A stretch of 51,850 nt of DNA, the filler included, from Bipalium vagum (taxonomy: Eukaryota): assembly GCA_037834085.1 (NCBI GenBank). It is 3 parts of 3 records of this genome, joined end to end, with 100 filler letters (N's around TTAATTAATTAA, not from the genome) between each part and the next. Parts side by side here need not be neighbours in the genome. Positions count along the whole stretch, not along the records: positions 18,723 to 36,213 come from JBBMKC010063385.1; 2 more parts are not named here. One strand, given 5' to 3'. Position 1 is the first letter of the stretch. Each line of letters opens with the position of its first letter. The position numbers were made by a program, and so were the translations under genes. The notes under the pieces were generated by a model that made no database searches, was not told where the DNA came from, and worked only from the letters and a program-made list of their open reading frames with translations. Positions 1,647 to 44,600 of this stretch are shown here, in pieces.

Positions 1647-1879
1647 ATATTACATCTCAAAACAAATTAGTTTACCATATTATGAGATAAGCCTCTTAAT
1701 TGATCCAGGGCTGATAGTGTCAGACTTTAATTTGAAAAAAATATTGATTAAAATTGAGATTTTTATTTGTTTATTTTTCTTTTTTATTGTTATTTTCTTC
1801 AATTCTTTTATTATTTTTATTAATATTAGCGGCTTCAGATGCTTTGGGATTTCTATTTTGGATTGTAGATCTAATCAAG

Positions 1880-8260: not shown

Positions 8261-8428
8261 NNNNNNNNNNNNNNNNNNNNNNNNNNNNNNNNNNNNNNNN
8301 NNNNNNNNNNNNNNNNNNNNNNNNNNNNNNNNNNNNNNNNNNNNNNNNNNNNNNNNNNNNNNNNNNNNNNNNNNNNNNNNNNNNNNNNNNNNNNNNNNNN
8401 NNNNNNNNNNNNNNNNNNNNNNNNNNNN
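8261..8428. other. Assembly gap (N run)
   Basis: Run of N. Confidence 0.99.
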
Positions 8429-15240: not shown

Positions 15241-16230
15241 AATTAAAATTCTGATTGGCTAAATTGAATTTAATTGTAAATAAAGCAATTAATCACAAAA
15301 TTAAATAAATTAATTATGAAAAATAAAATTTGTAAAAAAAATATGGAACTATATAAAAAAAGTATTTCTCAACAAAAAATAATTTGGCTGAAAATTAAAA
15401 TTAAGAAAACCTAACAAGAATTAATATTTCATGTTATATTTTAAATAAAAGAAAATTAATGATAATATTTTCTGAAATCTTTGGATATTTAAAAGGGAAT
15501 CTGTAAATATATTGCATTATTCCTCAAAAGTCGATCCAAAGCTCTCAAATTAAGCAGCAAGATTATTTACAACTCACAGAACAAATTCATTAGAACTCTT
15601 TAACAGAACTCTCAGATTTTATGAGAAAGATATACATATTGGTTTTATTCAATTAAGATCTTGAATCAGGTTTTATTCTTCAAATACAGGGCAAACAAGA
15701 GACAACATAGGCAGACTGCTCAAATAATATTTATTGTTTTGTACATAAATTATTATTCTTCACCCTTGACACAGCACGTCTCAAATAAAATATTTTTATT
15801 AATTATATAAAATTATCGTCTTTGTTTTATCATTTCAAATTTATTTAACTTTTACTTGTCCGTTTTGATAATTTCTTCATATTTAAATTATATCATTATA
15901 TCCAATAAAATATTATTTAAATAAAATTTATAAAAAAATAAATATTAAATTAAATTAAAACCAAATATAAAATAATAACTTTAATTTTGAAAATGTTTAA
16001 AAAATGCCCTTAAAAGTTAAAATTTCCTTTTAAATGTGATTTGATGAATCTACTTTACATAATTTCCTTCAGTATTGAAATATCCCATTCATTTAATTGG
16101 CAAAGCTTTTTACTTATTTACATTTATTCAAAATATAAATATAAATATAAATATTTAAATAATAAATAAATAGTAAATAAGTAACAAATATACTATACTT
16201 AATATTTATTAATTAAATGGTAACAAATAA

Positions 16231-17505
16231 TATTGGGGTTGTCCATAAGTTTTTTCGTATTTTTAATCAAAAATTAAAAACAAATTAGAACAAGAATAAA
16301 TGTTTGTTAAGCCTCAAAATAAAGACCATTTGAATTAATAGTTTGAATTCATCTATCGGCAAATTGCTGGATCCCGCGTTGATACCAGTCTTTGTCTTTG
16401 GAGTTGAAAAGGTTTTGGCAATCTTTTTATCTTATCCAAAATATTGAAACAGGATAATGTGTCAAAATGTGTCAAAGATCTGAAAAGATGGCGCGAGATC
16501 TAGACTGTAATCTGTATGTGGTAAAATTTCAAAGGTATTCAATTCCCTTTTTTCCTTTGTTTTCCTGACAGTATGCAGTTTGGCGTTTTCGTACTGTAGT
16601 AGTATTCTGTTTCGATTGATCAATGCTGGATATTTTTCCTTTAACTTTGTGTACATCTTATCCAATCGAGAGCAATAGAGGTTTTGGTCAACGGCCACAT
16701 TGTTTTTAAGACGTTAGAAGTGGATTTCGCCTTCAAAATCTACCAAACTTTTTATAATACTTTTTTAGTAAACCGTTCTCTCTTTGAAACCTGTTTTTGG
16801 AAATTGTCCGTAGTCAGGCTATTAATTGTAACTGTTATGGTTATATAGATAGACCCATTTTTCATACGAGGTAACAATTCGGTGTATAAAACTGGCATCT
16901 AAAGAATTTGAAATCAGTTTTTGGCACATCTCAATACGCAGTTTTATTTTATTTTCTCTCAATTCGTGAGGAATTTGTCGACAGCATCTGTTTATTTATC
17001 CATTGAATGAAAATGTGTAAGAACTAATTTTTTTTGAATACCGAGTTTTTCAGATAATCTTCTAGTGCTGGTCGATGGATTAACTTCAACTGCGTTGCGT
17101 GTAAATCCGAAATCCATGGTTATCGGCCTGCTGGATCGTTCTTGATCTTGAAAGTGCTCTTGGCCTTGATTAAATTTTTTAAACCAATTTTGGATCATAC
17201 GAATTAAGAGATAAAGTCAATCCCCTCCACCTCACACATCTTTTTGGCCGCTTTTGTTGCACTGACATTTTGTTTCCAATAATGTCTTAACAGTACTCGA
17301 ATTTAAAATTTATTCCTATTTTCTTCTAAACAAAAGAAAGCAGTATATTTACAATAATTTAATAAATATTAATATACCGTTTGACAATGGAAGTTTTTTT
17401 TCAAAATGATATATAATTGTATTGATTTAAATATTTATATCAATTACAAAATTAATTTGAAATGGCAAAACAAAAATACGAAAATACTTATGGAACACCC
17501 CAATA
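16231..17505 (-). mobile_element. Near full-length (about 1.28 kb) inactivated mariner
   Basis: TA-flanked TIRs TTGGGGTTGTCCATAAGT / TTGGGGTGTTCCATAAGT. ORFs 16992-17198 (WFKKF..QERSSRP) and 16462-16698 (LLQYENAKLH, HTDYSLDLAPS), plus HRIVTSYEKW. Multiple stops and frameshifts. Confidence 0.92.
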
Positions 17506-18622
17506 TATAAATATAAATAAAAAATATTAATATGAATATGAATATTTTTATATATTTAAATATAATTATATTTATAATTTTAAATTTAAACATAAATAAA
17601 AATACAAATATAAATACAAAAATAAGTATAAATATAACAGATTTTTATTATTATTTTTTATTTATTAAACCAGTAAAGGGCTATTCAGATTATATAATGA
17701 AAAAATACCATAAAAGTATTTTAATCAGCATTAAATTTTTCTTTTTTTTTTGTCGAAAAGTACATAATTATCCTTAAGATTGTCGTTGTTGCCAAAATTG
17801 GAATATATAAATGAATTGAACTATTACTGTGAAACAATAAACGTCGATTCCCCATTAAAACGATTTCAATGGGTAAAATGGGAATCGTTTTTAAATGCAG
17901 TAAAACACAGTGTTCATACGGAATTCTCCAAAGAACGTTCAGAATTTCCATTTTTGCTCAAAAAAGTCCTCAATGATAATCAAGGAAAGCAACCAGTGAT
18001 TATTGTCAACGACTGGGGGTTTTATCCGTCTAGGAGGAAAAAGATAATATTTTAAGAGGATTTTCAGGCTTTTTGAGTTTTCATAATAATAATAATAATA
18101 ATTTGGAAATCATGTTTAATATTGATTGATTTTAAAATAATTAAATCTGTGATTAATTTAATTATTTATTTAATGTTGTTTTTCCAAATGTCTTTTAATT
18201 ATCTTTCTGCAGACACTCTCAGAACTTACCAAATGATTCTGATGTTTGCAATTTTATTAAAGAGAAGAAAGGTTTTCAAGAAAATTTGGCCAGACAAATG
18301 TTTTAAATATTTTTTTATGTAACCGTTTTGAAGGGAACGCTTCATTATATCAGCGATTATTTCGGTATTTCCAAAATTCTGGGAAAATCTCAGAGTTGCA
18401 CGGCGGAAAAAAAGCGGATAATTTTCTGCGAAAAATATCAGATAAATACTTTTATAAAATATTATTTTTAATATTTTTATTCTCAGTCGGTGAAGATATT
18501 AAAATATTTAATATTATTGTTTTTTTTTAATAAATAAATATTTATTTTGAAAAGGATATCTTTGTCAATTTACTGTCATAAAATAATGTGTAATGAACCG
18601 TGAAAATATCATGGAAATTAAT

Positions 18623-19009: not shown

Positions 19010-19808
19010 GTTAACTATGAATTTCGAGTGCTTCACGAATTTAAACGTGGCCACAATTCACCAAAAGCAACATGAATTTTCAACAAGGCAATGAAAACAG
19101 GTTCAGTTTTGGAACGCACAACTCGTTGCTGTTTCAAAAAAATTTGAAGGTACAAGAGTATTGGAGATTAGGATCACGGTTAATGATGATCAATTGAAGC
19201 AGTTAGTGGAATCAAATTGATGTTATACGATAATTGTAAAATATCTGCAAAAATATTTAAACAAAAATGAATCACCAAAACAAATTTGCATCCAAAAATG
19301 GCAATTGTTACAGTATGGTATTGTAATAGAGGTATAATCCATTACACCTTTCTTAAAATTGATAAATACCGAAATAGACAAAATGCACAAAAAAAATTTT
19401 CTGAAAAGATGCAAGCACTTATGAACAGAAAAGATCAAATGTTATTAGACGACAAAGCCACACTGTATACCTCACGACGAAAGATGCAAAATTTAAAACA
19501 GTTATATGAAGCTCTATCATATCCACTTTATTATCCGGACTTATTACTAACTGATTTCCATTTTCTAGAACGTTGAATTGATTATCCGCCAAAAGAACTT
19601 CACTAATTAAACAACGGTTGAAGAGACTTCGGTGTCTCAGAATCAAGGATACAAATTTTAACAGTAATAAAATAGAAAGCTTTGTCTCACGTTGTAAAGT
19701 TTTAACGATTGACAGAATATTTTTTCTTAAATTAATTTTTGACAAAGTTATGACGTTTTCTTGAAAATCAACATAAAAAACGGTAATTTCATATATAACA
19801 ATCTAATA
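19010..19808 (+). mobile_element. Degenerate mariner with internal deletion
   Basis: HEFKRGHN N-terminus. ORF 19286-19576 has KMAIVTVWY..GIIHYTFLK, LLDDKATLY (HDNARPH) and YPLYYPDLLLTDFHF (HPPYSPDL). A 3' TIR-like end CAATCTAATA is present. Confidence 0.85.
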
Positions 19809-21057: not shown

Positions 21058-22149
21058 TTAAAAGGAGATCGAAAACTGAAAAAAACTCATTTTCATATTC
21101 ATTTTATTCGTTTTACTATTATTATTTGTTTCATATTATGTTGAATAATAATTAATAAAGAGATGATCGATTAATCTATCCACTTGTAAATGTAGTAAAG
21201 AATAGGTCTATCCATCGAAATGGTTTTCTTTTAGACATTGTGATTAACTTTAAAAAATCCGTGTTTCGATATTATTAAAGAATTCTATTGAATATCTTTA
21301 TTCAATGACTTGGAAATTAAATTAGACTAAAAATATTAATATCAATTAATCTAAACATTTTCTGCTTTAAAATTAAACTGGAAAACTTATCTAAATAGGT
21401 CGATATTTTTTATATCTCCCAAACTACATTTATCTATTATTGGACTCATTGGAATCCCGACAGAATCAGAAAAATGTACCCTGCTTGAAAGCTTAACAAA
21501 TTACTGAAAAGACATTTTATAATGGAAATTAATAAAGAATAAAATATTGGTAAATCTACTAGTTGGGAAACTTGAGACTTGTGGATAAGAACTCCAATAA
21601 AAATATCTCCACAAGAATATTGATTAGAAATAAAATTCCAAAACAGTTTTTAAATTAACACTCTTGTTTAAATGCCCGTGTGAACTTGGAAATTCTAATA
21701 AAAATGAAGTGAGAAAGACTCAAATTACAAGAAATCAAAAACTGAAAAAATGTAAATATTGTAGTTTTTCAAATGTAGTTTTTAATAAATATTTTAATAA
21801 ATAAAGACAAAATAACCTTGGTTCGATAAACTGGAAAAATTCTTAAGTTAAATTTGTAAAAGTTTAATAGATAAGAAATAAAATAACAAATTAAATCAAG
21901 ATAACTGAACAACAAAACTGAAAAAAATTACCCATGATTTCGTGAAAAAATAACAAATTGCTAAAGAATTACGAATATATTCTCATTAACTAACAAAACT
22001 AATAAATTAAAATTGGAAACGAATTCTGATTTCTGGTGGAATATGTGAAGATAATAGATTATCAACACTTAATTATTATTCCATCAAAGATAAAGATTCG
22101 TGAATTAGAAATAATAAAACAATATCGGTGATTTACTAAAGAAAGATAC

Positions 22150-24463
22150 CTGAAAAGGTTTGAGAATCTGATTTGAAAATGACTGGTCTGTTGCATTCAC
22201 AATTTTCAGTATAGTACTCGTGGGAGTATGAGTCGCTTCCGTAATGTTTTGACCACCGCGTTTTAGCATTAATAACTGACTGGCGCTCATTGCTGTAGCA
22301 GGACAAACCAAGTCAATGACTTTAGAGCTGGTGGCTTCTTCTGCAGTTTCAGTTTTCTTTGAAAGATCAATTGAAACCAAAGACGTTGTTGTGGGCTCAC
22401 TAGCAAAATTATTGATTGAGCTGATGTTACTTTTATTTTTATTACATAGCTCTGTGACAGAGCTAATTGTATTAGAAACATCATTATTTTTCATTGATCC
22501 AGTCAAATTCTCAGTTGTCAGAGACGATATCGATTTGATCACTTCCGTTATCATAGGCTTAGAAACTATTGATATTGAAGAAATATGTGATGAAATCGTC
22601 GTGAGCTGAGGATAAAAAGATACAGGTGTTGCATGCTGATTGTGACTACCAATGGGATCCGAGGAGCCAACCACCGGTGATTCCTGTGAGACTGAATGTA
22701 TAAGATTTTTAGGCACCGTTAAAGACTGACTAGATGCAGGTCGAGTGGCTGATGACACGAGTTTATCAGAGCGGTTCAAAATTTGAGATCTTGACAAAAT
22801 GTTTGGCGTATTTCCCGATTGAGTGTATAGCTTGCGCACTTTTTTCACTGACCTACTTTTAGGACGAATCCATAATGGAGAACAATCATCGATTTTGTAA
22901 ATGTTATTTATCGATTGTGTCATTTTGGAAACTTTATTTTGATCGACAATAGGTTTGTCAGTCAGTAAAACCTTTTTCCGATCCGACTGAAATTGTGAGT
23001 TGACCAATTTCCTTTTTACTGTATCTTCAATCCTTCCTGGTAAAGAACCCTTTGTTTCAATTACAATATCAGTATTCCTCAAAGGCAAATTTAACATTTT
23101 CCGATCAATTGTTGCACGAGCAGTCTCCTGTCCATTTTTATCATATTCAGCCTCGATATTTTTGAAAGTTGCAAGTCCTTGTAATCGACTTTGTAATGTA
23201 TTTAAATCGTCAAGACTGAGATTCTGAACGATTATATCCTTTTCCGTTTGGATTATTGTACATTGCAGCCCCAAGCGTAGCTTATCCAACAAATTCAAAG
23301 CTTTACTTTCTTTCGGTCTCCAGCCTTTACGGATATTTAAAGGACACTTGGACTTGCATGGCTGGTCAGTTTCTTTAATGGTTAAAAGCCCACCAGATTC
23401 ATCCGAGACCTCAGTCTCATTTGGTGGTAAGACTTCCACTACAGATGACGAATCTGAATCAAGAATTTCAAACAATTCTTTCTCACACTCGCTTGACTTA
23501 ACGCCATCACTATTGGAATCACCACTTTTTCGATTGGGAATTTTATGTCGATCATGATAACAATATTTGAAATCGAGCTTTGGAATCTTTTGTTGGCGTT
23601 TCGGACGACTAAGTGTTACATTTTGATAATTTGAACTTTCCAGATCCTCATCGCTTGATACACCAGAATTTTCATTACACAATTCCTTTTCAATGCACTT
23701 TTCATCAATTGATCTGTTCTTCTTCATAGGTTTTCTAATCGTTCGTCGATTCGTCTTCTTTTGAACCTCTGATCCAATATTAAATACGTTATACTTTCCC
23801 TTACAACGAAAGACAATTGGTCGATCTTCCAATGATTTCAGTGATTTTAGAACATTGCTATTATTAAATTTTCGAGAAGGACGACTGATAATGGTTCCAT
23901 CAAATAATTTCGTAGGCTTAGGGTTTGGGCGTAGTCTTGTTCCTCGCTTGAGTGAATCTTCTAAAGCTTTTCGTTTATTGTAGATCTTATCCTCCATATT
24001 GACACCCAGAAGCCCAATGCCACAGAAATAGACTTCTTTATCGAAAGACGATTCTACATACTTCTTACTATTCACAAATCGAACATAGATGGAATGTAAA
24101 GAATTTGGCAAGACGGAATCGATTCCTGGATCTACTTTGTTCATTTTCAGCACTGAGCTAATAATAACCGTTTGTGATAATTTCACTTGACCAAGATTTA
24201 GACATTCAATCTTGTTATTATCCATTTCTTTGACCGTTTTCAATGACTTAGACTTCTTCTTTAGCTTAACATTATAATCATCACAATCAGTAACCTTATC
24301 CGGACACGGAGAGTTTTCTGTGTCTTCTATTTTTGAACTCAGATAATTCTTTTTTATAAATTTGGACTTTTTTATCACATCTTTCCTATTTCTCTGTAGA
24401 TATTTTAACATTTTGACTTCAGCCAAATGTTGAGATTGTACAGTGAGATTTTGTTCATCCAAT
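22150..24463 (-). CDS. Large intact exon of an uncharacterised K/S/T-rich, probably largely disordered protein
   Basis: 785-codon uninterrupted ORF with host-gene-like composition. Acceptor ttaag|A at 24464/24463 and donor CAG|gtatct at 22150/22149. A possible upstream mini-exon ATGATGGTTAAATACAG|gt at 24618-24602 is in compatible phase. No domain recognised. Confidence 0.8.
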
Positions 24464-25269
24464 CTTAATCATCAATTGATTACATTATTAAAATAATAAG
24501 TTAGTAACTTTGTAGAATTGTTAACATTAGAATTAGACTTTTCAATATTACTGGAACATAAAATTCATGTACATTAGGTTAAAATATAAAAACTGTAATA
24601 CCTGTATTTAACCATCATAAGTAAATATCTAAAACTGAAATACAATGGTTAATTAGGAAATATAAGCACTCCAAAATATCTTACAAAAAAATTACAAAAA
24701 AATTATGTCATATATTAAGCTAATAATAAATTATGTATTATACATTATTTAAAAAGTTTAAATTAAGAGAAACAAATCAAAAGCTGTGTAATTGAAATTG
24801 AAACAAAAATATTTATAATCTGCGCTTTAAAAATACAATGACCTACAAATCTAATTCGCATTATTACATTTTAACAGCATTAAACAATGGTGGAAAATAT
24901 ATAATTGTCAGAAATTAATAATTTACTTCATAATATATCTATAATTTCATAAATCTTAGAGTCAATATAAATATTAGAAGATTACCATTTTAAATCATTA
25001 TAGATAAAATTTTTAAATAAAAAATTATTTAACATCTTAATAAGAAATATTTATTTTCGAAAAATAAGAATTAATACTTTTTATTAAATTAAATGTTTAT
25101 ACTTTTAAATAAAATATACGAAATATGTATCAGGATTATTAATATTTTAATATTTTTACGATATAAGGATTTTATATTAGTAATTTCTGCCAAAACAGTG
25201 ATTCTGTGTTGTGTGTTCATTTATGGTGTCTGAACCTTAATTCTGTGAACGCACGCTGTCAACTTTCAG

Positions 25270-26156
25270 TACTTATTCTTCAATTTTTTCTAAGTATGAA
25301 ATCTCCTTCATCATGGCATGAACTCTTCTTAGCATGTCACAATAGACATTAAAATTAATGGTTTCCCCGGATTTGAGAAACTCCTTATAAATAATTCCAC
25401 GAGAATCCCACCAAATGCATGAAAGAACTTTGTTTCGTGTAAAGTTGCGTTTTTCAATTTTTTGCAAAAGCTCTCCTTTCAACGACCACAATCTTCGTCT
25501 GGTTATGTTGTCATGATAGATCCACTTTTCATCGAAGTGACTATCCGGTCGAGAAAAGGATCATTTCGGTCTCTTTCTTGAACAAATTTCAATGCAATTC
25601 TACTTGTTTTTTTTCAGTTAGTTGGTGGGGAACCCATTTGTCGAGTTTACAAGTGAATCCTAACACTTTCAGTCTGTTTCTTATAGATGTATTGCTTATA
25701 TTTAACTCAGAAGCGATTTATTTAGCACTAATTGATCTGTTTTGTTCAAGAAGATTCATAATTTGATAATCCTCCAACGCTTTTGCCTTTTCAGACCTCT
25801 CTTTGTCTTTCAATGAAAAATCGCCACTATTGAATTTTTTGAACCAATTTTCCACTGTTTCCCAGTTGTATTGTTCCTTCACCAAGCAGCTCGTTAAGTT
25901 TTGAGACAGTTTCATTTGTTATTTTTCGATTCGTAATACATAATTGCACAAATTTTTGATTTATCCAGCGAACTTTTGGAGCACCTATTCCAGAGGATAT
26001 TGGTTAATAACATTAATTATGTAGTAAATTTGAAACTCACATGTTTAAGCAGCAAACTAAAACAAAGAAAATTTAAATCGGTAGATAAATGGGAATCTCA
26101 GGGGCTAACAAATTTAAACAAGTGAAAAAACGAAAAACTTAGTTCGTTACCTGATA
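25270..26156 (-). mobile_element. 3'-truncated mariner
   Basis: TIR-like TATCAGGTAACGAACTAAG; WFKKFNSGDFSLKDKERS, KWVPHQL, DEKWIYHDN, and KVLSCIWWDSRGIIYKEFLKSGETIN. Confidence 0.9.
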
Positions 26157-26599
26157 GTAACAATTTTTTGAGTATTGTAAATTGCAAAATATATTAAATA
26201 ATATTTGAAAAATGTCAACAACTTATATGACACATTTTAGATATAATGAATAATCGACACGTGTTGATGAAGCACAGAATAATAATTATAGAATTGATGG
26301 TGGAAGGGCATCGTACTTGCTCAATACATCTAAATAATAAACTAAAACAACAGTAATTTCTCTTTTAAAATCTAATAATCATAATGAAACTTTAAATAAA
26401 ATATGTAATAATATAAATAATAAATAATATTTTTAAATAACGGCCTGGAATCGATTCTATACATATAAGTGAAATTAAATTTGGAGAGAAATCTAAAAAA
26501 AATAATTATAGATAAAAAAATTTTAAAATCAGTAAGAATGAATTAATTAGGTTTATTCAAGATAATAATAATAAAATATTTATCAAGATGAATTAATAG

Positions 26600-28050
26600 A
26601 CATAGTTAAGTATTATTTAAATATATTAACAATAAATTGAGTTATCAAATTTTTATTAAACGTAAATTTATTCACCCATTCAAAATTTCTTTAGATACAA
26701 ATAAAATGAAATATTAATAAATCAATTTTATTCACAGCCAGAAAATAAATATAAAAGAAGAAATAAGAAATACACAGTTTTTATCAAACTTCGAAAAATT
26801 AAATAAGTATATAGAAGAAAAAGAATATGATTGAAAATTGGATAAAATAAAATCAATTAGACTAAATTTATTTAATTATCAAAGTTTAGTTAGATCATCA
26901 TATATAAGATTACCATTCAAATCACAATCTACAGTAAATATAAAAATAATGATTATACATGTTTCGTTTATTCTGTAATTGCTTATTTACATGTACCAGT
27001 GATTGAGTAAATAAATATGTTCCACATATAAATAAATTAAATTTAAATGATATAACCTTTCCTATGAAAAAAAAAGATATTAAAAAAATTAATAAATAAA
27101 TTAATATTTCAGTAAATATATTTGAAATTGATGAGAATAAAATAATAACATCAATTCATATAAAACATTTTATAGCTCATCTAACTATAGAAGAAATGTA
27201 TTTGGTTATTATATATTAACCATTATGTATTAAGTAAAAATATGACTATTTCATCTAATGTAAAATTAAATAGTAATCATGTGTGCTTAGATTGTTTTAA
27301 TTCTTAACGTTCAGAAAATTTATTAAAACAATATATAAGTATTTGTCAATAATTTAAAAAATCAAAAGCAACATTTCAAAACTATGAATATTGTCAATTT
27401 AATAATTATTACTTTATATTATTCTGAATTATTCAAATCAAGTTATTTTAAATTCTATGGAGAAAATGCTTTTAATGAATTTATTAAATCAATAAATGAC
27501 AATAATAATCATCTGGTAAAAAATACAAGTGATTATTATAAACATAAAATAATTATATCTGAAGAAAAAAAAATTAATTATTCAAATTCTATAAATATAT
27601 TGTCAATATTTTATATATTGACAAGAAGATTTGGAAGATGATAATGAAATCATTTTAAGTTAAAAATCATGATCATTTAAATGGAAAATAGAGTAGCACT
27701 TCCCAATAATTGTAATATAAATTATAAGTCAATTTAAAAAATTTAATTCTATTTTATTTTCATAATAGATTTGGATGAGATTTTCATTTATTTTTTAAAG
27801 AATTAATGAAAAAATCTCAAATGACATAAAATATATAATGCCCTATACAAATGAAGATTATATAACTTTTAGCTTTAAGAATATTAGATTTTTAGATTCT
27901 TTAAGAATTTGTTCAAATATTTCTGTTAAAGCTATGGGAGAAACTTTATTAAAATCTTATAAATTTTAAAATCATATGAATTAAAAGCTAAGAAATCATT
28001 TTATCCTTATGAGTATATAAAAGTTTCTAATAATAATGGAATTGATAAAT
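26600..28050 (+). pseudogene. Fossil Polinton/Maverick-type protein-primed DNA polymerase B, N-terminal/exonuclease half
   Basis: Colinear frameshifted motifs: SSYIRLP..VNIK.NDYTCFVYSVIAYLH (about 26895-26990), ITFPMK..ISVNIF, NHYVL, HVCLDCFNS, FYGENAFNEF, VKNHDHLNGK..NNCNINY (DHCHLTGKYRG..CN), FHN..G*DFH (FHNLSGYDSH), NEDYITFSF..IRFLDS, KKSFYPYEY (KGVYPYEY). I did not find the catalytic DxxSLYP or YGDTDS motifs. Confidence 0.8.
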
Positions 28051-28309
28051 AATTATTTTTAGCTGCGATATCAACAAAATCAGTCATAGTTTGAACAATA
28101 TATTTTGAATGTCTTTTTAAAACAATGATACTTAAACAAATTTTCCATTCTTAATGAATTAATACTATATATTGTGCCATTAAATATTAAATTCATTTCA
28201 ATAAAAAATATTTTAAAATAAATATTAACAGTAAATTAAAAAAATATTAAAATTAAATTTACAATAAATTAAAAATTTAAATTAGGCACAATATAAAAAT
28301 TTAAAAATT

Positions 28310-29920
28310 AGAAAAGTATCATTTGCTAAAAGAGGAAATAAAGTTCTTGGGTCATGTGGTGAGTAGAAAGGGGGTAAAGACAGACACTTCAAAGTTTGAG
28401 GGGATTAAAATTTTTGAAAGGCCGAAATGTGTAAAAGGATTGAGAAGCTTTTTAGGGATCTGTAACTATTATAGAAGATTTATAAAAAATACTCGAAAAG
28501 TTCTAGGCCCTTGAAAAGAGCGTGTGGAAAGAGTGAGAAAAAATTAATGTGATCACTTGAGATGGAAGAAGCGTTCAAGGAAATGAAAACAACATTAACA
28601 TCAAGTCCTGTATTATGTTTCCCCGATATTAAGAAGGAATTTATTCTAGATATAGATGTAAGCTTTGATTAAGTTCTTTCTCAACTGGAACGAGTGATAG
28701 CATTCGGCTCTCACACCATGAACAGCCATGAAATTGGTTACTGTATTACTCGAAAGGAATTGCTGTCCATTTATTACTTTTATTACTTTCAACATTATTT
28801 ATACTTAATGAGGTTCAGACTGAGAACGGACCATAAAGCAATCACCTTCAAGATGAGTACGATCACGTCGCAATTCTGGATTAATTACTTGAGCAGTTTT
28901 GACATTAAGTTCGAATACAGGAAGGGTTCTATGCATATGAAAGCAGATCGGTTATCTAAAGCAAGATGCGAAACATGTACTCACTGCCACTTAGCGCATA
29001 AGGAGGCTAAGAAGGGAAAGATGAAAGTCAGGATGTTGGATGCAATAGGGACAGAAGACGTTAAAGATGCAGAAAAGAACTTAATATGGCATGTTCATAG
29101 AGGGTTGGCTCATGCAGGTACTGAGAAGGTCGTGGAATATCTGAAGGAGAAACATGATATAAAGGGCTTGTGGAGTAAAGTTCGGAGGGTATTGTCAGGT
29201 TGCGAAGTGTGTCAGAGGCATAAAGTGGTTACATCAGAGACAAAAGAGGCCACAGTGAAATTAGAAGCATCTGAAATGTTTGAGAACATTTATGTCGACA
29301 TCTGCGGTTCGTTAACGGAAACCAGGAGGAAGAAAAAGTACATCCTAGGCATAATAGATCAGTACAGTAAATATATCTGTTTAACTGCGATAGCAAGGCA
29401 GGGCGAAGAGATAATTAGAGGTGATAAAAAAAGTTGAGTTTTCAAGTTTGGTAGTCCCAAGATAATCAATGTGGATTGCGAAAAAATATTTGAGTCAAAG
29501 AAGATGGCAGAGTTCGCGAAAAGTATAAATTCAGAACTACGGTTTTCAAGCCCCTACCACTACAACACTAATGGCCAGATTGAACGATAATTTAGAACTA
29601 TTAGGGAGCGACTGAGTACAGATAGAGAAGAGCAAGGAAGGATTGAGAGGAACTATTGCCAGAGGTCGAGTTTTCATTGAATGCAACAACAAAGAAGACG
29701 ACAAGAAGGAGCCCCACAGAGATTATTTTTGGCAGGCGCATAGACCGAGAAAGATGGTATCCGTCGAGAGAGAAGGTGGATAGGATGAAAGTGAAATCGA
29801 TGACGAAAAGGAATTTTGTTGTTGGTGACGAAGTCCTGGAAGAAGTTTAAACGAGGAATAAGGACCAGCAAGGAGACGAAGGTCCATATCGAATCCAAAG
29901 AAAGATACATGGAAGGTAAT
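28310..29920 (+). mobile_element. Ty3/gypsy LTR-retrotransposon pol fragment (end of RT, RNase H, zinc-binding and RVE integrase), degenerate
   Basis: IKFLGHVVS, LRSFLGICNYYRRFI, SPVLCFPD..KEFILD, YCITRKELL, LRTDHKAI, ADRLS, H..H..C..C, IYVDICG, YILGIIDQYSKY, SPYHYNTNGQIER. No LTRs seen. Confidence 0.93.
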
Positions 29921-30331
29921 GTGTTAAAATTAAAATTCATAAAATTTTGAAATTTATAAAAATTCTGAAAAATTGAAAACTATCATTACAAAATTGAATT
30001 AAATTTAAAAAATTTAAAAATTGCATTTCATCCTATAAGCTTTTAGCAAATGTAATTTCAAGTAACATAATATTGTAACATAATAAACTTTTATACTTCA
30101 AAAGGTTAAATAAAAAAAGACTGAAAATTATAAATAAAATGACTGACAAAATATTGTTGGCGCAACTCTTATCAAGCACACCTGACCTACGCTGAGGTTG
30201 CTGTGGGTCTACCTAAAAAGCTCGTTACAAAAACACAAAAACAACTATTCCAAAAATATATTAATAAAATGAGGGTAAGACCCTTTTAATTACAACAATA
30301 AACTGCAACAGGCAGTCTCAACGCAAACACC

Positions 30332-30408
30332 AAATCTTAATTAAAAGCTTAATCTTAATTAAAAGCTTAATCTTTATTAAAAGCTGTGCCAAATCTTAAT
30401 TAAAACCC
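30332..30408. repeat. Short tandem repeat, about 4 copies of AATCTTAATTAAAAGCTT (18 bp)
   Basis: Seen directly. Confidence 0.85.
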
Positions 30409-30879
30409 TGGTCAGCAAGAAAAAATTACAAGATTAAACATTACCTTTAATGCAATTTTCTGGGCGAAAAATAATGAATTTTCGCTGGCTTATATAATGT
30501 TTTACTGTTCATTTTAGCGTCTCTGATTGACTAGTTAAGCTGTCAATCATGACTTACTTTCTATATTTAATTAGAACTAAAAATAAAATAAATTTCTAAA
30601 AATTGAAAATTATAATATTATAAATACATGTTACTGACTAAAAATCAGTAGTTGATTCTATTTAAAATTTATTTTATTAAAAATTAATTATAATTTAATA
30701 ATTTTAGGATAACATGCTTCTGATTAAAAATCAGTATTTGCTCCTAAAATAATATTTAAAATTTATTTAATTAATTTTAAATTAATAATTAATAATTTAA
30801 AATTGAGATTTGGTTTTAGTTTTACAAGATTACTATTTTCGTTTGACTTATTTTTTTATACTTACTTCATTGGATTGAT

Positions 30880-31300
30880 TAAGGGTTTCGACTGCTTTGT
30901 TGGATTTTTATTGTTATAAAAATTAATTAATTGAGGTAATTTTCTGTTTTCATGTCTGTAAATGTTTTAAACATCATATTATTCAGACTTGTATTAAATC
31001 TTTCTGTTACAACAAATTTCCCCTGATTTTCGATGTTATTTTCTTTACAAAATATATAACTTCTATAAAAGTAAAGTAAAAATTTTTATTGTAAAAGTCT
31101 GTGCCTTTATCAATTTAAAGTTTTGTAGATCTTTTTTATACACTCCAAATATTTCATCAAAAACATCCCTTATATATTTTCCAGTTTTATTTTTAAGGGA
31201 ACAGCAAAATCATATTTTGTGTATAACTCAATAACTGTTAGAATTATTTTATATGATCCGGCTTCTCGTACAAATTTTAATTGCTCTTTCTAGTTTTTCT
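30880..31300 (-). pseudogene. Fossil Polinton/Maverick-type RVE integrase
   Basis: GSYKIILTVIELYTKYDFAVPLKNKTGKYIRDVFDEIF, IDKGTDFYNKNF, VTERFNTSLNNMMFKTFT, FYNNK. Compare Polinton integrase YKYILTVIDVFSKYAWAVPLKNKTG / TDKGKEFYNK / ERFNRTLK. Confidence 0.8.
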
Positions 31301-32689
31301 CATGGAGTTCGATTTTGAATTTTATTCATTTTATTTATTATTTATATTACATCGAAAACACGTCTCTTTACATAATATTTTATTGTGACTTGATCAATCC
31401 TATTTATTGAAATTTTATTTTGTTTTAGAATTAGGAGAATTTATAATTCTCCTATTTCATAATGAATAAAAAATAAAACTCTAATAAGTGAATCAAGAAA
31501 TATAAAAAGAGAAAGAGAAGCTTATTAAACTTTTACACCTTAATATATTTTAGACCAATTTGTAACTTCAAGAAAATATTTAGCTGCAATAAAAGCAGGT
31601 ATTAATGATATTGATCGTTTAATTTTTAAAATATTGAAAAAGACTGAAAGAAGAGAAAACAATGAAAAATAAACATTGCAATAAAATTAAAGATAGATGT
31701 AATTTACATTCAAATTAATGTTTTACTTATGTATAAATTTTAAAAATCTATTTTGTAAGAATTTTTATATATCAGGTGTCACATAGTTTTTCATCTTTCA
31801 GATATCAGTTTTATATAGTGTTGGGGTTTTTTATTGCCTCGACTTATTTGTTTTAATTAATAGAGCTCACCAACTTTTCAGAAAGAAGTGAATTTAATAA
31901 GAGAATTTGAAAAAAACTTATAAGCTAATCAGACCTGGGGAATTTTTTAATTATTTTAATTATTTATTTTAAATATTTTAATTATTTTAAAATATTAACA
32001 AAGTAGGAATGAAATTTCCAGGTTTGAGAAAATTTATTATAATATTATTTGTTATATCACTTAATAAATATATTCAAAAAATGTCTTCTAATTCTAATTG
32101 ATATTAACAAAACTAAAGTAACACTTTTGTTTAAAAATATGTATTTGATTTATCACAGTTTATACACAGCTCTTTATAACAATAGCACACCTTTTATTAT
32201 ATTATTATAATATTTATTTAGAAAAATTATTATTTTCACCCTTGATTGCCGAAAAATCAAGGAGTCCCTTTGTTAGAATTAGAAGTCTTACTTTAAATCC
32301 TAGAGGTTAGTAGAGTATGGTGTATAAGAAAACAGAAATTGCAAAAGGAGCAAAAGAATCGAGAATGTAAAGAAGATTTCTTTAATTGCGAGGTGTTAAA
32401 TTAAATTTCGTTTAATTATTAATTTTAATAATTTTATTATAATTTTCGTTTAATTTTTCGTTTTAATTCGTCTTTTGGTTTTTTAACTTTTTGAAAGTTA
32501 TGTTACCGTATAGTTTTGCATCTTCTCTTGATAAAAATTTTGTCTGCCTTTATGACTGAAAACAGGGGTTTATATAGTCCTATTTCCAGCCTTTGATGTT
32601 CCTGATTGGCTTAATTTTTATTTACCAATTTTATTGCAATCTTTCTAATATTGCTAGCGTTTGCTGGTGAATATTTATTTTAGGCCTTG

Positions 32690-33189
32690 ACATACTCATA
32701 TTGGATATCTTGAGTCTTTCTACGATTGATCTTGTTGCAGAATGGTAATCTTTTTTCAATTATTGATTCTATGTAATCATCATCTACTTTAGAAGACCTT
32801 CCACTGAGCTCCTTATATACCACTTTTGAACCTTAAAAACCATTGACTGGCCACAGTCTGGACAACGGTCCGTAGGTATATGAAAAAGTGGTTTATGAAT
32901 CATCTCCATAAAGAGAGCAAATCTTCTTCATTGACTCCGAATCACTTTTACCTTTCCGGTAATAAAATAATAAGATTCCTAAAATTCATTTTATTTTGTT
33001 CCATTTTAAAATAATATTAAGTAATCGAAGTTTTTAAAAATTATATCGATAATACTTTCAATTGGTTCGTTTTAACAATAGCTTTCAGAAAATGTATATA
33101 CATATACATGCTTATTCACGATTTATAATTCTCTTTGATGTTAAAAGACAATTGTTTAAAAAAGTTACGAACTATGTTACAATCTAATA
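32690..33189 (-). mobile_element. Mariner 5' fragment
   Basis: TIR-like TATTAGATTGTAACATAGTTCG; YYRKGKS..SMKKICSLYGDD, QWFLRFKSG, SGRSSKVDDDYIESIIE. Confidence 0.8.
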
Positions 33190-33257
33190 GAAAGGCAGCG
33201 ATACGTACAAACACAGATTTGTTATCTAGACCTTCACATATCCCATAACTGAGTACG

Positions 33258-33980
33258 TTTTGGGATATGTGAAGGAGAAACATGATATAAAGTTTTTGTA
33301 TAGTAAAGAACGTAGCGTATTGTCAGTGTGTGAAGCGTGCCAGTCGCGTAAAGTGGTTACATCGGCGAAAAAGGAGATCACCGTGAAATCTCAAGCATCT
33401 GTGATGCTTGAGAACATTTATGTCGACATCTCAGTTCTTTAACGGAAACCAGGAGGAAGAAGAAGTATATCATAATCATAATAAATCAATATGGTAAATG
33501 TACCTATTTAACTGCGGTAGGAAGGCAGGCCGAAGACAAGATTATAGAAGTGATAAAAAGTTTGGTGCTCAAATATGATAGTCACAAGATTGTCAATGTG
33601 AGTTGTACAAAGAAATTTTAATCCAGGTAGATGGCGGAGCTTGTAAAAAATATAAATACTGAACTATGTTTCTCAAGATTTTTCTTCACAACTCAAATGG
33701 CCATATCTAACAGCAATTTTAAACAATTTGGGAGAGACTAAAAGCAGCGAGAGAAGAGCAAGGAAGAAAGGATTTGGAGGAACTGTTTTTGGATGTCAAC
33801 TTTTCATTGAGTGCAACAACCCAGAAGACAACGAGAAGGACCCGTGGAGATTTAGTTTTGGAAGACCGATAAAGATGTTACTGTCGAGAGTGGAGGTGGA
33901 TGAGACAGAAGTGAGATCGAGCACGAAAATAAATTTTGAAGTCAATAACGGCTTCCTGGTCCAATGTGCTAAGATGAAAT
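33258..33980 (+). mobile_element. Second, more decayed Ty3/gypsy integrase fragment of the same family as 28310-29920
   Basis: Aligns by eye to about 29135-29850 (YVKEKHDIK vs YLKEKHDIK; shared TTGAGAACATTTATGTCGACATCT and TAACGGAAACCAGGAGGAAGAA). Confidence 0.88.
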
Positions 33981-34309
33981 AAACCAAATATTTATAATTG
34001 ATATTCTTTATATTTACTATATAATATGATTTAAATGGAAACTTTATATATGAAGATCCTACTAAAGATTTATATGAATTTAAATCTACTTGATTGTATT
34101 TATATTTTTAAAATTCCATTCCTAGAAATTTATTTCTTCTAAATATATTCATTTAACTTTAAAATATTAAACTTAATGTTTGTCTTATTTCCTTTTCACT
34201 TGTTTTTACAATTGGCTTTAAATAAAATGAGAAATCCTCATTTTTATCATATTTATCATATTTAGAACTTAATATTATTATAATTTTAAATTTTTTATTA
34301 CTTTCAAGA

Positions 34310-35300
34310 TACCGTGTTTTTCCTATTATAAGCGGCCGCTTATATTATTTTCCGATGAAAAAATTTGGCTTCCGCTTATACATGTATTTGAAGGACCGCT
34401 TTTTTCAAAAGATACAGAAATCTTAATTTAACAGTTGAATCGTGCTCTTCATCGACATCTTCAAAAATCAAGATTTTGAACTCTTTCTATTAATTCCTGT
34501 GAATTAAGTTTATCTTTGATAAGTGATTCTAATTTCTCATTTTTTCCTACGAAACTTTCATTGAATGAAACCGAAATGTCCAGATAGGCAGCCTTCAAAG
34601 TTTTTTTTGACAGTTATATTTATTTTATCCCAGGTATTTCTAACTCACTTGACTATTTCTTATAGATTCGATTTTAGAAAGTTATTTTTTCATTTATCAT
34701 CATTTTCTTCTCAATATACTCATTGATTTACAATCTAAAATTGTCCTTATATGGCTTATTTATCACCAAATCTAAACTTTGAAGATACCCTGTAATTCTA
34801 GGTGGTATCATTATTCGATCAACCTATCTCTCTTTAAGAAAATTTTTCATATCATTGATACGATGAATGCTGACTGAATCCCGTATAAGTAAACCTTTTC
34901 TATTGCCTCTCAAAACCATTGGCAACATTAGGTCAATCCATTTACTAATTGCTGCTTGGGTACTCCATGCCTTTTCTGTTTCCAGAATGTACACACCAGA
35001 CAACTGCTCAATTTTATTTTTCTTTCCTTTAATAATAATAAAAGGCTCTGACTTTGGTCCATCCAAAAGAAGTGCAAGAATACAGGTAAACCTCTGGCTT
35101 CCATAATCTGTTGATTGATGATGTCCCACGAATGTCTACCATAAATACAGCTGTCTCATCAATTGCAATCATATACGACAATTGGTATTTCTGAAAATCA
35201 ATATTATCGACAAATCTCTTATATACATCATTGTGTCAAAACAATTTCATTATCCTTTAACTTAAAAAGAGAAGTTCCCTTTCAAAAAGATAATTCATTT
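34310..35300 (-). mobile_element. pogo/Tc2-like DDE_1 transposon remnant
   Basis: Terminus TA+CCGTGTTTTTCCTATTATAAGCGG; MIAIDETAVF, RFTCILA, KAWS, LLIRDSVSIH, IPPRITGYLQSLDLVINKPYK. Confidence 0.85.
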
Positions 35301-36213
35301 ATTACTCTTAAGATTTAAAATATAAAAAGAATTTTCACTGTCAGTGACTACAAGGTAAACCTAAAATTTTATTTTTTTCTTTTCAATTTAATTTTTAATT
35401 AATTATTCTTGCACTTTTCTTTCACTTATTAGGCATCCAGTTTCTTTTTTTAATATGATTTTAATTACTTGTTGAGTTAAATTTAGTGAAGCAGATAATT
35501 GTTATTGCGCTTGATTTCAATAGTTCGTCAGGGTTTTCCATGAAACATACTTTTGCAGAAAAATATTCTTATGAAACTATATAAAGCAAACTTTTATTTA
35601 TTTTATAGATTAAACGTTTAATTTACTGGGTTTTTCAAAGTTATAGTTATATCACTTCATATTTATATTTACAAAGACAAGGTTTTCACTAAAAAAAAAG
35701 TAACAGGAAATCAACACAAAAATTTCTTTATTCAAGTTATATTTTTATGTATTCATTTTAAATAATTCAAAATCAAAGCAATAATAATATATTTCGTTAA
35801 ATCCGATCACTCAAACAAACTTATCAAACTTGGACCTCACCTTTTTTTAAAATTAAATTATTTACTTTTATAAAATTTACGAAAATTTATTTTATATATT
35901 TAAAGAAACCGTAACATTATAATTTTTTAAAACTTTAAATTAAAAACATTTAATAATTGTTAATTTAGACGTGAGATCCTTATTTTTAAAAATTTAAGCA
36001 AACTAATTGTTCGAATCACTCCTTATAATTCACACTGGCGCTACCACACCCCCAGAAATTCAGAATGATACGATAGTTTACCTATCTTAATGCATCTATG
36101 GACTCTTCAATACTCAAACTCCAATGATGACTGATATGTGGAGATCATCAACCAAGAAGAGGAAGGAATGAGGCTTGGAAAGGCTTGCAGTATCACCGAA
36201 CATTGTTATGACT

Positions 36214-38641: not shown

Positions 38642-41600
38642 TTAAACTAATTTCATTTCTTTTGAAAAGCGTCTCAAATCTGATGGAAAAGACTGATTCA
38701 AGTAATTACTGGAAGTTTTTTCATTCGATAAAGCCAAACTGCTGTCAACAGATTCGAAATTTGGGTAATTTAGCTGATACCACTTTTCTTCGCCTGACAT
38801 TGTTGTTGAGATTGGCAACACGATAGACCCTAAGCAAAAGTTTTCTCCTAATACTTCATTATGCCAAACTGATACTTCGACCTTGGTGGAGGATTTGATT
38901 TCGATGTTGTTGTACGTGATCTATTGATACGTTCAACTTTTTGAAAATTTTCATCATTATTTCACTTACAATATCGTTAAATGAGGGATTGCAGTTCTTT
39001 ACAATGACTTTAGTTTTCCTTTTTTCCATAAAACCAGGTAAAATGTACGTTTTCACATAAGGGTTCGGTGGTTCACTGAACCGATATGCACTCTGAGAAT
39101 AAAAACGTTTTTTTTACTAATAAAAACAATGCAACGAAAGAATTTTTATATGGTAAAAGATAAATAAATTTTCAATGAAAATATAATTAGCTGTCTGCAA
39201 AATCCATTGAGCATTGAGAAATGTAATTAATGGTGAAGACCGAGCAATAACATAAAGCATGCTCATTACAATTTAAAGAAAATTCAGAACTATACCTACG
39301 CATCGTAGGAAAACATAAAAGTTTGCTCATTGTTGATAAATAAAATATTGAATAAAGAAAATTAATAAATGATGAAATTATAAATCAAATGGAAATACCA
39401 TAAAGATAACCTGGAGCATTTTAGAAAATTCAAAATAAATATCATAAGTACAACACAAAAAGAGAAAAAAAGAGAATACGAGGTAATGATTTACAAAACG
39501 TTTTGTTAAATGAAAATATATTCTAAATTACTAAATCACAAAATCAAACCGAAGAGGATACGTTTCCATTAGAAAACTTTATATCCTCAATGGCACGAAT
39601 ACATTTAATGTTACAAACTAAATCTCTTATAAAAAATTTTAAATCAAAGCATTTTTATATTTGTTTTAATTTATCAATTAAAATATATTATTAAACTAAT
39701 AAAAACAAATTTTATTGAACGAAATAAGTGAAATCAATTTTTTATTTAATTAATAATAATAACAATAATAATCATAAATACTACTACTACTAATAATAAT
39801 CGAATGCAGTTAGAAAATAAACTTATTGTGTATAATTTCAAGTGTATGCATTAAAAAATATTTTATAACTTTACCTTTGAATGTCCTAAAATGAAAGTGA
39901 TACATTTAATATTTTTTCTATTGATTTCAAATCCAATTAGTTTTAGAGATCAGAATCAAATCAACCGCACAAAATCTATTACATTCTCTAAAAGTCATGT
40001 GAAAACCCTTAAGATTGAGCAAAAAATCACAATATTCACAGAAAAAGTTTGAAAAATGTAAATTTGAAGATAAAGTTGCATTTTAAAAGTCAGAACTTAG
40101 AAAACTAACTAAATTTCTTGCATGTTTCACGAAGATTTCTAATTTTGTTCCTCTTTTGGAAACATGGAACTTGAGTTGAATTTCTGGATTTCCGGGCTTC
40201 AGAGTATCGTTTGTTTCTAAATTTTTTTTAATTAAAGAAATTTAAAAATTAAATTTTATAAATATCATAATTTAAATTATTTTATGTCGATTGAAAGGAA
40301 CTCCATTATAAACAATTGTTAATTCAATAAATAATAAAATATTTATTTGAAAAACAAATGTCTTTTTTTCATCGTAAAAACGACGACCGTCAACAAACAG
40401 ATCACTTTTCAAACAAGAAAAATCAATTTTTTTTATTGATTTTCATAAAACAACAATGAAAATTTTATAATAATTTCTACAAATTAAATGCATTTACCAT
40501 TTTGCTAATATTATTAAAACTAGAAGATTTTAAAAATTAAAGTCAATTCATATTTTTGAATTTATATCGAAAGTCTCAACATATCTATGAAAAAACTGCC
40601 AAATTAAGACACAATTATCATACATAATTAAAAACCTGATTTTTTTATATTTATAATATAATAAAAACATTTAAACTATTAATTTTTCACTAAAGATGAG
40701 AAAATCGCATTTAACTTGAATTCATTGTAAAGCTTTTACAAATTTCAAATGGAAATATATGCATTTAATTTTAGTAAAGAGTAAATACAAATCAATTATT
40801 ATAAACATAAAAAATCCAAAGATTTATATAAGACGATTAAATCTTGAATAAATAAAACTATTTTATAAAACCGACAATTTTTTGGACCAGAATTATATTT
40901 ATATTTTTTCTCTTAATTTATAACCAGCGAAAAATTTTTGATTCGATTTTTAACCATTTATGAATTTACTTAAATGTGACTTTCAAAACTGAAGATATAC
41001 GGGGACGGTTCAAGGGGTCCGTCAAAAAAAAACCGGAAAATCATATATTTTTCTATATAATACTTTTAGTAAGTATTATTTATCTAAACCTTCAAAACAG
41101 ATTTTTACTTCACAAATGAGCTCATAATTTAAACTAAATAATTTAATTTTCTAATCGTCTTTTTTCATGTGGAAATTGAAAAAAATATCAGACGAAGCTA
41201 ATTCAGGAAAACCCTAAATTTGAATGTAAATTATAATGATATGCCAGCAGCATGAACAATCTCACACACTTTAATTGGGCGGTTAACTAAAACCACAGGA
41301 TGAATATTTTTTTATCATTATGGATATTATTTCTTTATTCGGGAATCAAGGACATTCACTATATAATATTATTCTTCAGCGGAATTGTGTGAACCATTTA
41401 CGATCTATCTAGCTTGGATTCTGATTCTGTAATAGTTTTCTCATTTAAAAAAATTTTCTTAAGGATCCGAAATTGTGTTCATTTTTTCTTAATTGGGAAT
41501 ATCTGCAGAATTATAACAAATTCATTTATTTGTCTGAAATTGAATATCTAAGTTATATTTGACAACCATTTACTTATATAGAAAATGTTATCCCCCACCA

Positions 41601-44600
41601 TATTGTGGCATTGAGTTATTTTTCTCACATGTTATTTATTTAGAATGAAATAAAATATGGAAAAACCAAAATGTTATTACTATATTATCGAAATTCGTTC
41701 AATTTTTCTAGAACTGCTTGAACCACCCGGGTATTTCAGAAAATAAGATTTTAATATATTTCACTGATTAACAAGAACTAAAAATAGATTTGATCAATGG
41801 TTTTTTTTAATGACCTTCTACGGTAAAGTTTCTTTAAAAAGGAAAAAATCTTTAAAAATCAAAGAAAACAAATTTCATTCACATATTTTACAGAAAAAAC
41901 TCTCCATTATATTTTTGTTTGTTAAAATTTATTGCATCATTGGAAGAAGAAAAATCTTTATTTGTGCCCTTCAGTACAACAATGAATCTTAGAACACGAA
42001 ATCGCCACAAAACCAATCATAAATAAATCTAAAATTCTTTACTTGGTACGAACATATCTTCTTCCTTGAACTGCTCATCGGACAGAGTGGAATAGAAGAA
42101 AGTTTGAATCAAATCGCATTGAGAAATTTCATCTTCCATATTCAAAACACTATTCGAAAACTGTTGCAGAATACTTCGCTTGTTTTCAGCAGTGACGATA
42201 TTGTTGGGCGGTCCACACTGAACGATGTGCTGGTAATGTTTCGGAAGCATGCTCAACGGAAACTGGGCTGCCAGTTGCTGACTTAGTTCAAGGAAATGTT
42301 CAAATCTTCGAAACACAATTTCCGGTTTATTGACATCATTTTCTTTGTATACATAAACCTGATATGTCTGAGAAAAGAAAGTGTAAAATGAGAAAAAGAT
42401 TGATATGGTGATTTTTTTTCGATTACATAGTATTTTGAAGGAATCCTGACTCGTTTCACACTTTCCAATGAGACCTTTACAATTTTAGCACCATTTCTAA
42501 ATGTCAAATAAAAAACAATAGTCACCATAGTTATACAAGCAAAGTTCAAATGAAACTTGTGAATTTTTGGCGTGAAGCTAAACAGAGACCCCTCAATGTT
42601 ACTGGAGTATTTCATTTGTGCCAAATTATGTATAAAAAAATTCACTGGCACAAATTTAGAGCTGACAGATTTTCTGATCAAACTAAATTACAAATAGAAC
42701 ACAATTAAATGACAAATATTTTTATATTGCGATTTTAAAAAAATATTCAAGGAAGAGAAAATTGGAGAAAAGAAATTGACAAAAAAATTTTCTTTCTCCA
42801 TCAATTTTTATTTTTCTCACCTATCAACAAGTAAATTCATATTTGAATTAAATCTAAATGAAAGATTTTAGTCATACAACTCAGACATTGCTCCAACAGA
42901 TATCCATATATTTATATATATATTTGAAACACTTGTTTTGTTGGAGAAAGATTTCATTTGATTTAAATATGAATTTGTTTTAAATCATCAATTAAATCAA
43001 AAATAAGAAGAAATATGTTTTTCTTAATATATATATTATAGAAAATATATTATATATATAGAAAAATTATTGTGAATTTCATATAAATTGTTTGAATTAA
43101 TTGAAGTCACTAAATAACTTTATTTTTCATATTATCTTGTATTTTATTTATTTATTTATTATTACGGATTTTTAAAAAAATTAATGGTTATTATTAATAT
43201 TATTATGACTTTTTACTTGATTTATTTATTATTATAATTAATATAATTATTTTTTATATTTTAATTGTTTTATTATTATTCGATTGGAGATAATATTTTT
43301 TTACTTAACGAAAAAACATACTCGGTGAACTGTTCGCTAGCCTGAATATCTGAGCATTCCAATCGCAACATCTTCACGACATATTGTATACTTTTACTAT
43401 TTACTCCAGGAATGTTAGCTTCCGATGCCTTAAAGAAATATATTAATGGCTTAAAAAATAAATATCCAATAATTGCCATCGTCAATATTGCATATAGAGA
43501 AGACCAATGTCGTCTGATTATATTGTATGCCTCGCAACATTTGTCTATCAATAATTGCATCCCGTTCCTACGATCATTATCTTGAGGATGGTAATCATTA
43601 AGAACATAAACCATTTCTTGTGTCAGTACAAAAGGAACTCGATCTCTATTAGAAATTTAAAATTCAATTTATTTTTAATGGTAAAAATAATTATTTTTTA
43701 ATTACATTGAATGCATTTCTCAGAGTTTTTTAAGTCTAAAATATTTTTCGAGATGAATATTCATTATTTAATTATACTATTAATACTAAAAGCTTTACAA
43801 AATAATTAGCTTAAAAATCAGATGTGTAAACTTTTGAAAGGACAGATTTTTGTGATCAGCAATCCGAGATGCATAATAAAATGATTATCTTATCTCAGAA
43901 AAATTTTGGACCTCGGATAGTGAGAAGATGGTTGTCATATGAACTGAAAGAAAGACATGATGAGGCGGAAAACAATGTATGAAGTCTGATTTGAAAGGCA
44001 AAGAAAAAGTTTAGCACGATAATATCTGGTGATATTTCTTGTAGAAAGGCAGTTCATAATAACAAAACCAATTCAATAGTTGAAAACAACCCACATTTAA
44101 CAACATTAAAAATTGAATTGTGATAGATATACATCATGTCACAATTGGGAGACTTTCTAATTATAAAGTTTTAATATTACCTGATTTCTTTGAAAACTTT
44201 AGAAATACACGTTTAAAATATTTTGATCACTTTCATTTTTAGGCGCACAATGATTAAAGTTATGAATTAAATAAGTTAAAGAAAAGAATTTTCCAATGAC
44301 GAAAGGCTTCAGTTTTTCAGAAACATATTGCAAACAATATAAAATATTGTTTCTGTCCTTTATATATTTTGGTAAATATTAGAGGGTGTGTAACTAATAG
44401 AGGGAATATTTATTATTAATAGAAAAAAGGAATTAGAAGATGAATATATATTACTATTATTAAATAATAATATATAAATTAATTTTAAATAATGAAAGAC
44501 AAGCCAATATAATACTGCAACTAATTATAGCCATATCATATTGATTTGTTACGTTTGGCTGTTAATAAATGATTTCAAAATATAAAACCTATTGCAATAT

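Follow-up and report, generated by a model that had tools for sequence, protein, structure and literature searches.

Polintons (Mavericks) carry the gene for a protein-primed DNA polymerase of family B (pPolB) for which Krupovic et al. (2024, PMC11161782) give the domain order TP-vOTU-EXO-PALM, a link between the terminal-protein and Y-family little-finger folds, and a homing-type nuclease insert. The POLB of Sf Maverick 1 and 2, from Spodoptera frugiperda, is described as having recombination endonuclease VII and DNA polymerase B2 (PMC5803895). Adintoviruses (Starrett et al. 2021, PMC8502044) have an OTU-bearing PolB, and the same source reports degraded endogenous copies, broken by nonsense and frameshift mutations, across animals and defines a bidnavirus-related Alpha class with an OTU domain and a pfam03175 PolB; Drosophila-associated adintovirus 2 comes from PMC8363768. 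In 960 eukaryote genomes, 20,702 pPolB1 homologues linked to an integrase have been counted (bioRxiv 10.1101/2023.08.22.554363), and piRNAs are known to target Polintons in a planarian (PMC8532177). Endonuclease VII in Maverick polymerases, degraded endogenous adintoviruses and planarian Polintons are already in print in PMC5803895, PMC8502044 and PMC8532177, respectively.

We analyzed a stretch of 51,850 nucleotides, filler included, from the genome of Bipalium vagum (GCA_037834085.1), hereafter the window. Very probably, the bases 26490-28031 are a broken, truncated copy of a pPolB gene, the decayed and functionless remnant of a Polinton/Maverick (adintovirus-like) insertion. The relic and its relatives have the published Polinton domain order; compared with that layout (PMC11161782), the relic is a pseudogene with ExoI deleted and without ExoIII, PALM and ends. 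The TP and vOTU domains were mapped onto 26490-27248 from the folds of relatives, with the Cys and His still readable, which would give the ancestral protein an OTU-bearing PolB like that of adintoviruses; unlike adintoviruses, as far as PMC8502044 describes them, the window yielded no virion genes. The relic may be kin to the Alpha class, the PF03175 scores of the relatives being weak or absent. The Sf Mavericks, unlike the relic, are intact elements, and are likened to it by description (PMC5803895).

Table 1. Features of the polymerase relic and its neighbors, in window coordinates.
Feature	Position	Strand	Basis or remark
pPolB pseudogene, 5' part	26490..28031	+	alignments; about residues 78-594 of relative P0002
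Terminal-protein (D1) domain remnant	26490..26880	+	fold of P0013 residues 78-201, mapped to window
YIRLPFKS	26901-26924	+	translated motif
OTU-like protease domain remnant	26913..27248	+	OTU fold of relative
NNDYTCFVYSVIAYLH	26945-26992	+	translated motif
LNLNDITFP	27037-27063	+	translated motif
INISVNIFEID	27100-27132	+	translated motif
LLYINHYVL	27206-27232	+	translated motif
CLDCFNS	27284-27304	+	translated motif
CxxC...C zinc-finger-like motif	27284..27346	+	stop at 27305 interrupts
Internal deletion site, ~38-47 codons	27407..27417	+	ExoI block removed
Endonuclease VII / HNH-type insert, heavily decayed	27534..27740	+	Pfam PF02945 on relatives
DHLNG	27671-27685	+	translated motif
LPNNCN	27699-27716	+	translated motif
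FYFHNRFG	27752-27775	+	translated motif
Exonuclease remnant: ExoII (FHN..G-stop-D), RFLDS, YPYEY	27752..28016	+	alignment and motifs
IRFLDS	27883-27900	+	translated motif
YPYEY	28002-28016	+	translated motif
Mariner transposase remnant	25224-26128	-	Transposase_1, E 4e-18; directly upstream of the relic; very high contig depth
Gypsy pol remnant: RT end, RNase H, H2C2 finger, integrase	28310..29890	+	neighbor, outside the Polinton
Likely Polinton-type RVE integrase relic, N-terminal and catalytic part	30930..31440	-	~4 frameshifts, 2-3 stops
Second gypsy integrase piece	33248..33938	+	75-78% identical to 29120-29818
Second pPolB scrap, end of terminal-protein domain to OTU start	33960..34330	-	inverted relative to first scrap
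Pogo/Tigger-type DDE_1 transposase remnant	34824-35135	-	E 1e-04; upstream of second polymerase scrap

Extent and alignment of the polymerase relic

A first-pass annotation had placed colinear pPolB motifs, spread across frameshifts, at 26600-28050. Six-frame translation recovered the motifs in order over all three forward frames, and the frameshift-aware alignment to pPolB proteins on whose outcome that annotation had let its reading depend gave a significant colinear match. By frameshift-aware local alignment, residues 159-654 of P0010 matched 26727-28022 (144/429 identical, 10 frameshifts, 8 stops) and residues 78-594 of P0002 matched 26490-28031 (184/464 identical, 10 frameshifts, 12 stops), so that identity with protein-primed family B polymerases is 34-40%. 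P0010 and P0009, two proteins that the window query itself had not found, scored 308 and 348; the highest values among 60 shuffles for each were 55 and 53. When 46 window tiles were scored, values above 54 occurred in the second scrap alone (105 and 75). The pPolB homology of 26490-28031 is far above chance. Its limits are firm from ~26700, the first 200 bases being supported by a single alignment, and it begins somewhat before the start first proposed. The relic has about ten frameshifts (near 26944, 27006, 27196, 27413, 27609, 27658, 27689, 27742, 27813 and 27965) and 8-12 in-frame stops. Read-derived contigs from one run, which may be the source of the window itself, equal it without difference at 26228-26691 and 26796-27194, which excludes scaffolding errors as the cause of the breaks in those parts; at least one further copy is indicated by a 317-base contig that departs from the window by 41 letters and 13 gaps.

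A phmmer search with one frame of 26939-27817 (X for stops) against 1.84 billion proteins yielded 6 matches at E<=0.001, P0002 among them; word-indexed protein searches with single frames gave no match at E<=10 from 47 and 507 candidates. Pfam reported no family on the three raw forward frames of the relic and no relevant family on two short pieces; the DNA_pol_B_2 family that had been expected there was detected on the relative P0002 (PF03175, E 4e-16), which also has a zinc finger and an Endonuclease_7 match just under the cut-off (E 9e-05). The 85-aa open frame noted earlier is real (27339-27641; 85 aa from the first Met, 100 aa stop to stop) and follows the polymerase frame in its later part only. 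Sequence skipped by Pfam and ORF calling can thus be old Polinton debris, and annotation probably understates how much of AT-rich animal genomes is virus-like. Taken alone, the relic is of little importance and adds no new mechanism.

Domain composition

We modeled the relative P0013 with AlphaFold (mean pLDDT 78, pTM 0.40) and matched four of its parts to solved structures, with structural Z-scores all at or below 8; Foldseek against the PDB with the four-domain model gave no match at E<=0.001. Residues 78-201 resemble the Y-family little finger (Z 8.0, rmsd 2.5, 92 aligned), in keeping with the fold link noted above, and a stop at 26832 occupies the site of a Ser-Gly pair in relatives, a candidate priming residue. 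Residues 212-335 resemble OTU proteases (Z 7.3 with the whole model); folded alone, this domain reached a pLDDT of 90.5, and the top 25 rows were OTU-type proteases (best Z 7.4, rmsd 3.8, 105 aligned). Its Cys is present in 66/71 and its His in 69/71 aligned relatives, and both codons, at 26960 and 27221, can be read in the fossil with two frameshifts and one stop between them. Because the fold of that domain is OTU, the first motif of the first-pass annotation holds the likely catalytic Cys, that of the codon at 26960; the N-terminal motifs listed there are present and can now be assigned to terminal-protein and OTU domains.

Farther downstream, the Cys residues of the zinc-finger-like motif are invariant (71/71 rows of the relatives' alignment A2). 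The ExoI gap is seen against P0010, P0002 and P0013, P0009 aligning otherwise there. The proposed endonuclease-VII-like insert held up, with PF02945 on relatives and a resemblance of P0013 residues 473-545 to the beta-beta-alpha-Me nuclease Hpy99I (HNH-type; Z 5.3, rmsd 2.2, 58 aligned). P0013 residues 396-593 resemble the phi29 polymerase exonuclease (Z 6.5). Among the exonuclease motifs claimed earlier, RF.DS and YPYEY are both readable and FHN is in place, while GYD reads G-stop-D (stop at 27776) and the ExoI block is absent. The relic stops just past YPYEY, short of ExoIII and PolA/B/C, all found farther along P0002 and P0010; the core motifs and TPR1/TPR2 are missing from the window by truncation and are retained in relatives such as P0010. 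No polymerase-core remnants were found at 28000-28400, 29800-31000 or 31300-33300 (scores of 33-59 with 9 queries, equal to background). Truncation before the core, ahead of a gypsy fragment, had thus been rightly seen, except that ~280 bases of AT-rich filler lie between the end of the relic and the gypsy piece.

Relatives and their elements

With a profile of 7 such proteins, 678 of 7994 scored sequences qualified as relatives at E<=1e-20. As loci encoding relatives we took the best 80 of 390 from metagenomes, together with 4 viral contigs and 9 from prokaryote bins; Pfam was run on 3 proteins and on 124 ORFs taken from 13 of the first 84 loci. Double-jelly-roll capsid (PF21738) and A32 ATPase occur in L054, L083 and L084, rve also in L054 and L083, and an adenovirus-type protease in L084 and L023. 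Using HMMs built from the loci themselves, the 16 loci of at least 9 kb showed an integrase in 11, an ATPase in 12, a capsid cluster in 6 and a protease in 5. L054, L083 and L084 are like the Sf Mavericks in integrase, A32 ATPase, protease and PLA2-like gene (PMC5803895). The best viral structural match of P0013 is a protein of Drosophila-associated adintovirus 2 (E 1e-25, 21% identity), followed by MELD-virus and bidnavirus-like polymerases. The company of retrovirus-like integrase, A32 ATPase, double-jelly-roll capsid and protease, together with this adintovirus match, bears out the Polinton-like identity first suggested from motifs.

From 199 scored proteins, 149 passed score and coverage filters and were thinned to 57 relatives, giving with the fossil a FastTree set of 58 rows. 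In this tree the fossil groups with the environmental pPolBs P0002, P0013, P0065, P0012, P0008, P0010 and P0014 (up to 40% identity) with an SH-like support of 100, its row having been read by alignment to P0002 and having a long branch (1.03) and deviant composition. The subclade is absent from the fetched locus rows of the tree, and DNA scans found it in 0/188 and 0/10 stretches in viral contigs and 0/184 in prokaryote genomes; the relic draws attention to a subclade of polymerases, P0002 and P0010 included, with no gene context found in the DNA scanned.

Several loci carry other genes. In L045, a Polinton-type element, the polymerase is preceded by a PARP-domain gene (E 2e-11; 2966-4156) and immediately followed by a TBP-like one (PF00352, E 2e-04; 8143-8682), L081 has Tet/JBP-like oxygenase cargo at 5751-6626 (E 3e-07, under the cut-off), and L078 has BIR-RING (IAP) and dUTPase cargo at 2864-3394 and 7303-7770. 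Residues 1023-1135 of P0009, in the polymerase core, gave an intein-splicing match (E 5e-04, under the cut-off). The nine loci L085-L093 are Polinton-type contigs in bacterial or archaeal bins, and another relative, P0016, is labeled Sulfurimonas, likely through binning contamination.

Integrase relic, second scrap and neighboring elements

Two further pieces, missed by the first-pass annotation, lie within 6.3 kb of the first scrap: a second polymerase scrap and an integrase relic. The latter, judged by sequence, is likely of Polinton origin, scoring 134, 123 and 119 with the integrases of L070, L054 and L083 (maxima of 55, 53 and 46 in 50 shuffles each) and 37 with the window's gypsy integrase. 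Only these 3/17 related integrases reach at least 119, the 14 others scoring 72 or less, and as the L043 integrase scores 144 on the gypsy integrase, Polinton and gypsy types cross-match. The relic lies 2.9 kb downstream of the first scrap in convergent orientation; the same arrangement, with the integrase directly after the polymerase, is found in 6/20 related loci that have both genes, and the three top-scoring integrases come from non-convergent loci. The second scrap is 65-71% identical to the first over ~390 nucleotides and is cut off at the end of a gypsy integrase piece.

Capsid, ATPase, protease and PLA2 genes were absent from the window in searches with 50 cluster HMMs and with 10 frameshift-aware queries (best score 57, equal to background), the queries coming from distant relatives and the relic being truncated. 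Polintons have long terminal inverted repeats and a short target-site duplication. Neither was recognizable in 24500-36200, where the ends may be lost or decayed. With no capsid, ATPase, protease or terminal repeat in the window, membership in an element rests on two genes. We lean slightly against the three scraps (two polymerase, one integrase) coming from one element.

The window is rich in A and T, with 17-39% GC per kilobase. The gypsy piece matched RT_RNaseH_2 (E 1e-14), rve (E 2e-08) and Integrase_H2C2 (E 2e-07). As it starts inside its reverse transcriptase (~28310), its junction with the relic looks like a deletion between two scraps and not like a clean insertion into the polymerase gene. 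With few frame changes, the gypsy piece is probably the younger of the two. The locus is most likely ordinary debris in a transposon graveyard.

Alternative explanations

The polymerase could have come from a different kind of pPolB replicon, such as a cytoplasmic linear plasmid, a bidnavirus or a virophage, since TP-vOTU-EXO is common to cytoplasmic plasmids and vOTU-like domains occur in bidnaviruses (PMC11161782), and bidnavirus-like polymerases did appear in the fold search. These, however, were only 12-15% identical and took ranks 3-9, below the adintovirus match, while the sequence relatives at 30-40% identity adjoin integrase, ATPase and capsid genes. If the locus were instead a functional gene with introns, the breaks would fall at introns, for which 429 aligned codons within 1296 bases leave no room; with stops in frame as well, we ruled this out. 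To either version we give almost no credence. It is also very improbable that the decayed 5' half multiplied as a non-autonomous repeat, in many copies with common breaks and end points. Contigs are fragmented over the fossil, with a summed depth of 1200-8900 against ~20 in single contigs, and none of the 12 indels listed (there are 28 more) falls at an inferred frameshift; yet contig depth does not measure copy number; AT-rich mismapping probably raises it, and it was discarded as unreliable for that use. The best-supported differences over the fossil are all G/C to A/T, a signature of low-complexity mismapping, and because 13 contigs leave the alignment at 27908 the copies have no one common end.

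The two inverted polymerase scraps might be the arms of a single decayed, mirror-doubled, polymerase-only Polinton derivative around an integrase (a helper remnant). They overlap over ~390 bases with family-specific residues in common, the integrase relic sits between them, and three Polinton pieces cluster inside 8 kb. Long, near-identical inverted arms with matching flanks were nevertheless not found: identity is just 65-71%, the upstream flanks (78 against a maximum of 91) and inner flanks (174 against 179; 191 against 226) score at shuffle level, and the gypsy pieces that adjoin the arms lie in direct, not mirrored, orientation. Moreover, a contig elsewhere in the read run is ~83% alike to the first scrap, closer than the second. 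We rejected the mirror-arm reading on these grounds and regard it as distinctly improbable. It is likewise very unlikely that the debris in the window was left by a Polinton derivative, mirror-doubled or bipartite, from a polymerase subclade with undescribed and maybe capsid-less intact elements. We retain the decayed remnant of an ordinary Polinton/Maverick insertion as the best explanation.

Probable history of the locus

Judging from the intact relatives and PMC11161782, the ancestral protein would have used its own terminal-protein domain to prime the replication of a linear genome, and its OTU protease would have released this domain; its exonuclease would have served in proofreading, a homing-type nuclease insert would have been carried along, and the RVE integrase would have put the element into the host chromosome. 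Insertion was presumably followed by point decay and then by deletions and later gypsy, mariner and pogo insertions, which would have removed the core, the structural genes and the ends. Nothing in the sequence suggests a present function.

Other features of the window

Mariner-like scraps also lie at 19271-19576 and 3869-4147. A ~1.4-kb unit at 16142-17588 has 35-base inverted repeats (16230-16264 / 17472-17506, 91% complementary) and is probably mariner-type, and a ~770-base unit at 11244-12012, with 49-base inverted ends that are 76% complementary, is a possible non-autonomous DNA transposon. On the reverse strand, a 787-aa open frame at 22105-24468 is rich in Ser, Lys and Thr, has no Pfam family and Atlas leads below 0.9 only, and is probably a large host exon, and 38642-43656 contains class II PI3 kinase exons (kinase, PX, C2), the best match of the PX domain being PI3K-C2-alpha (E 2e-11).
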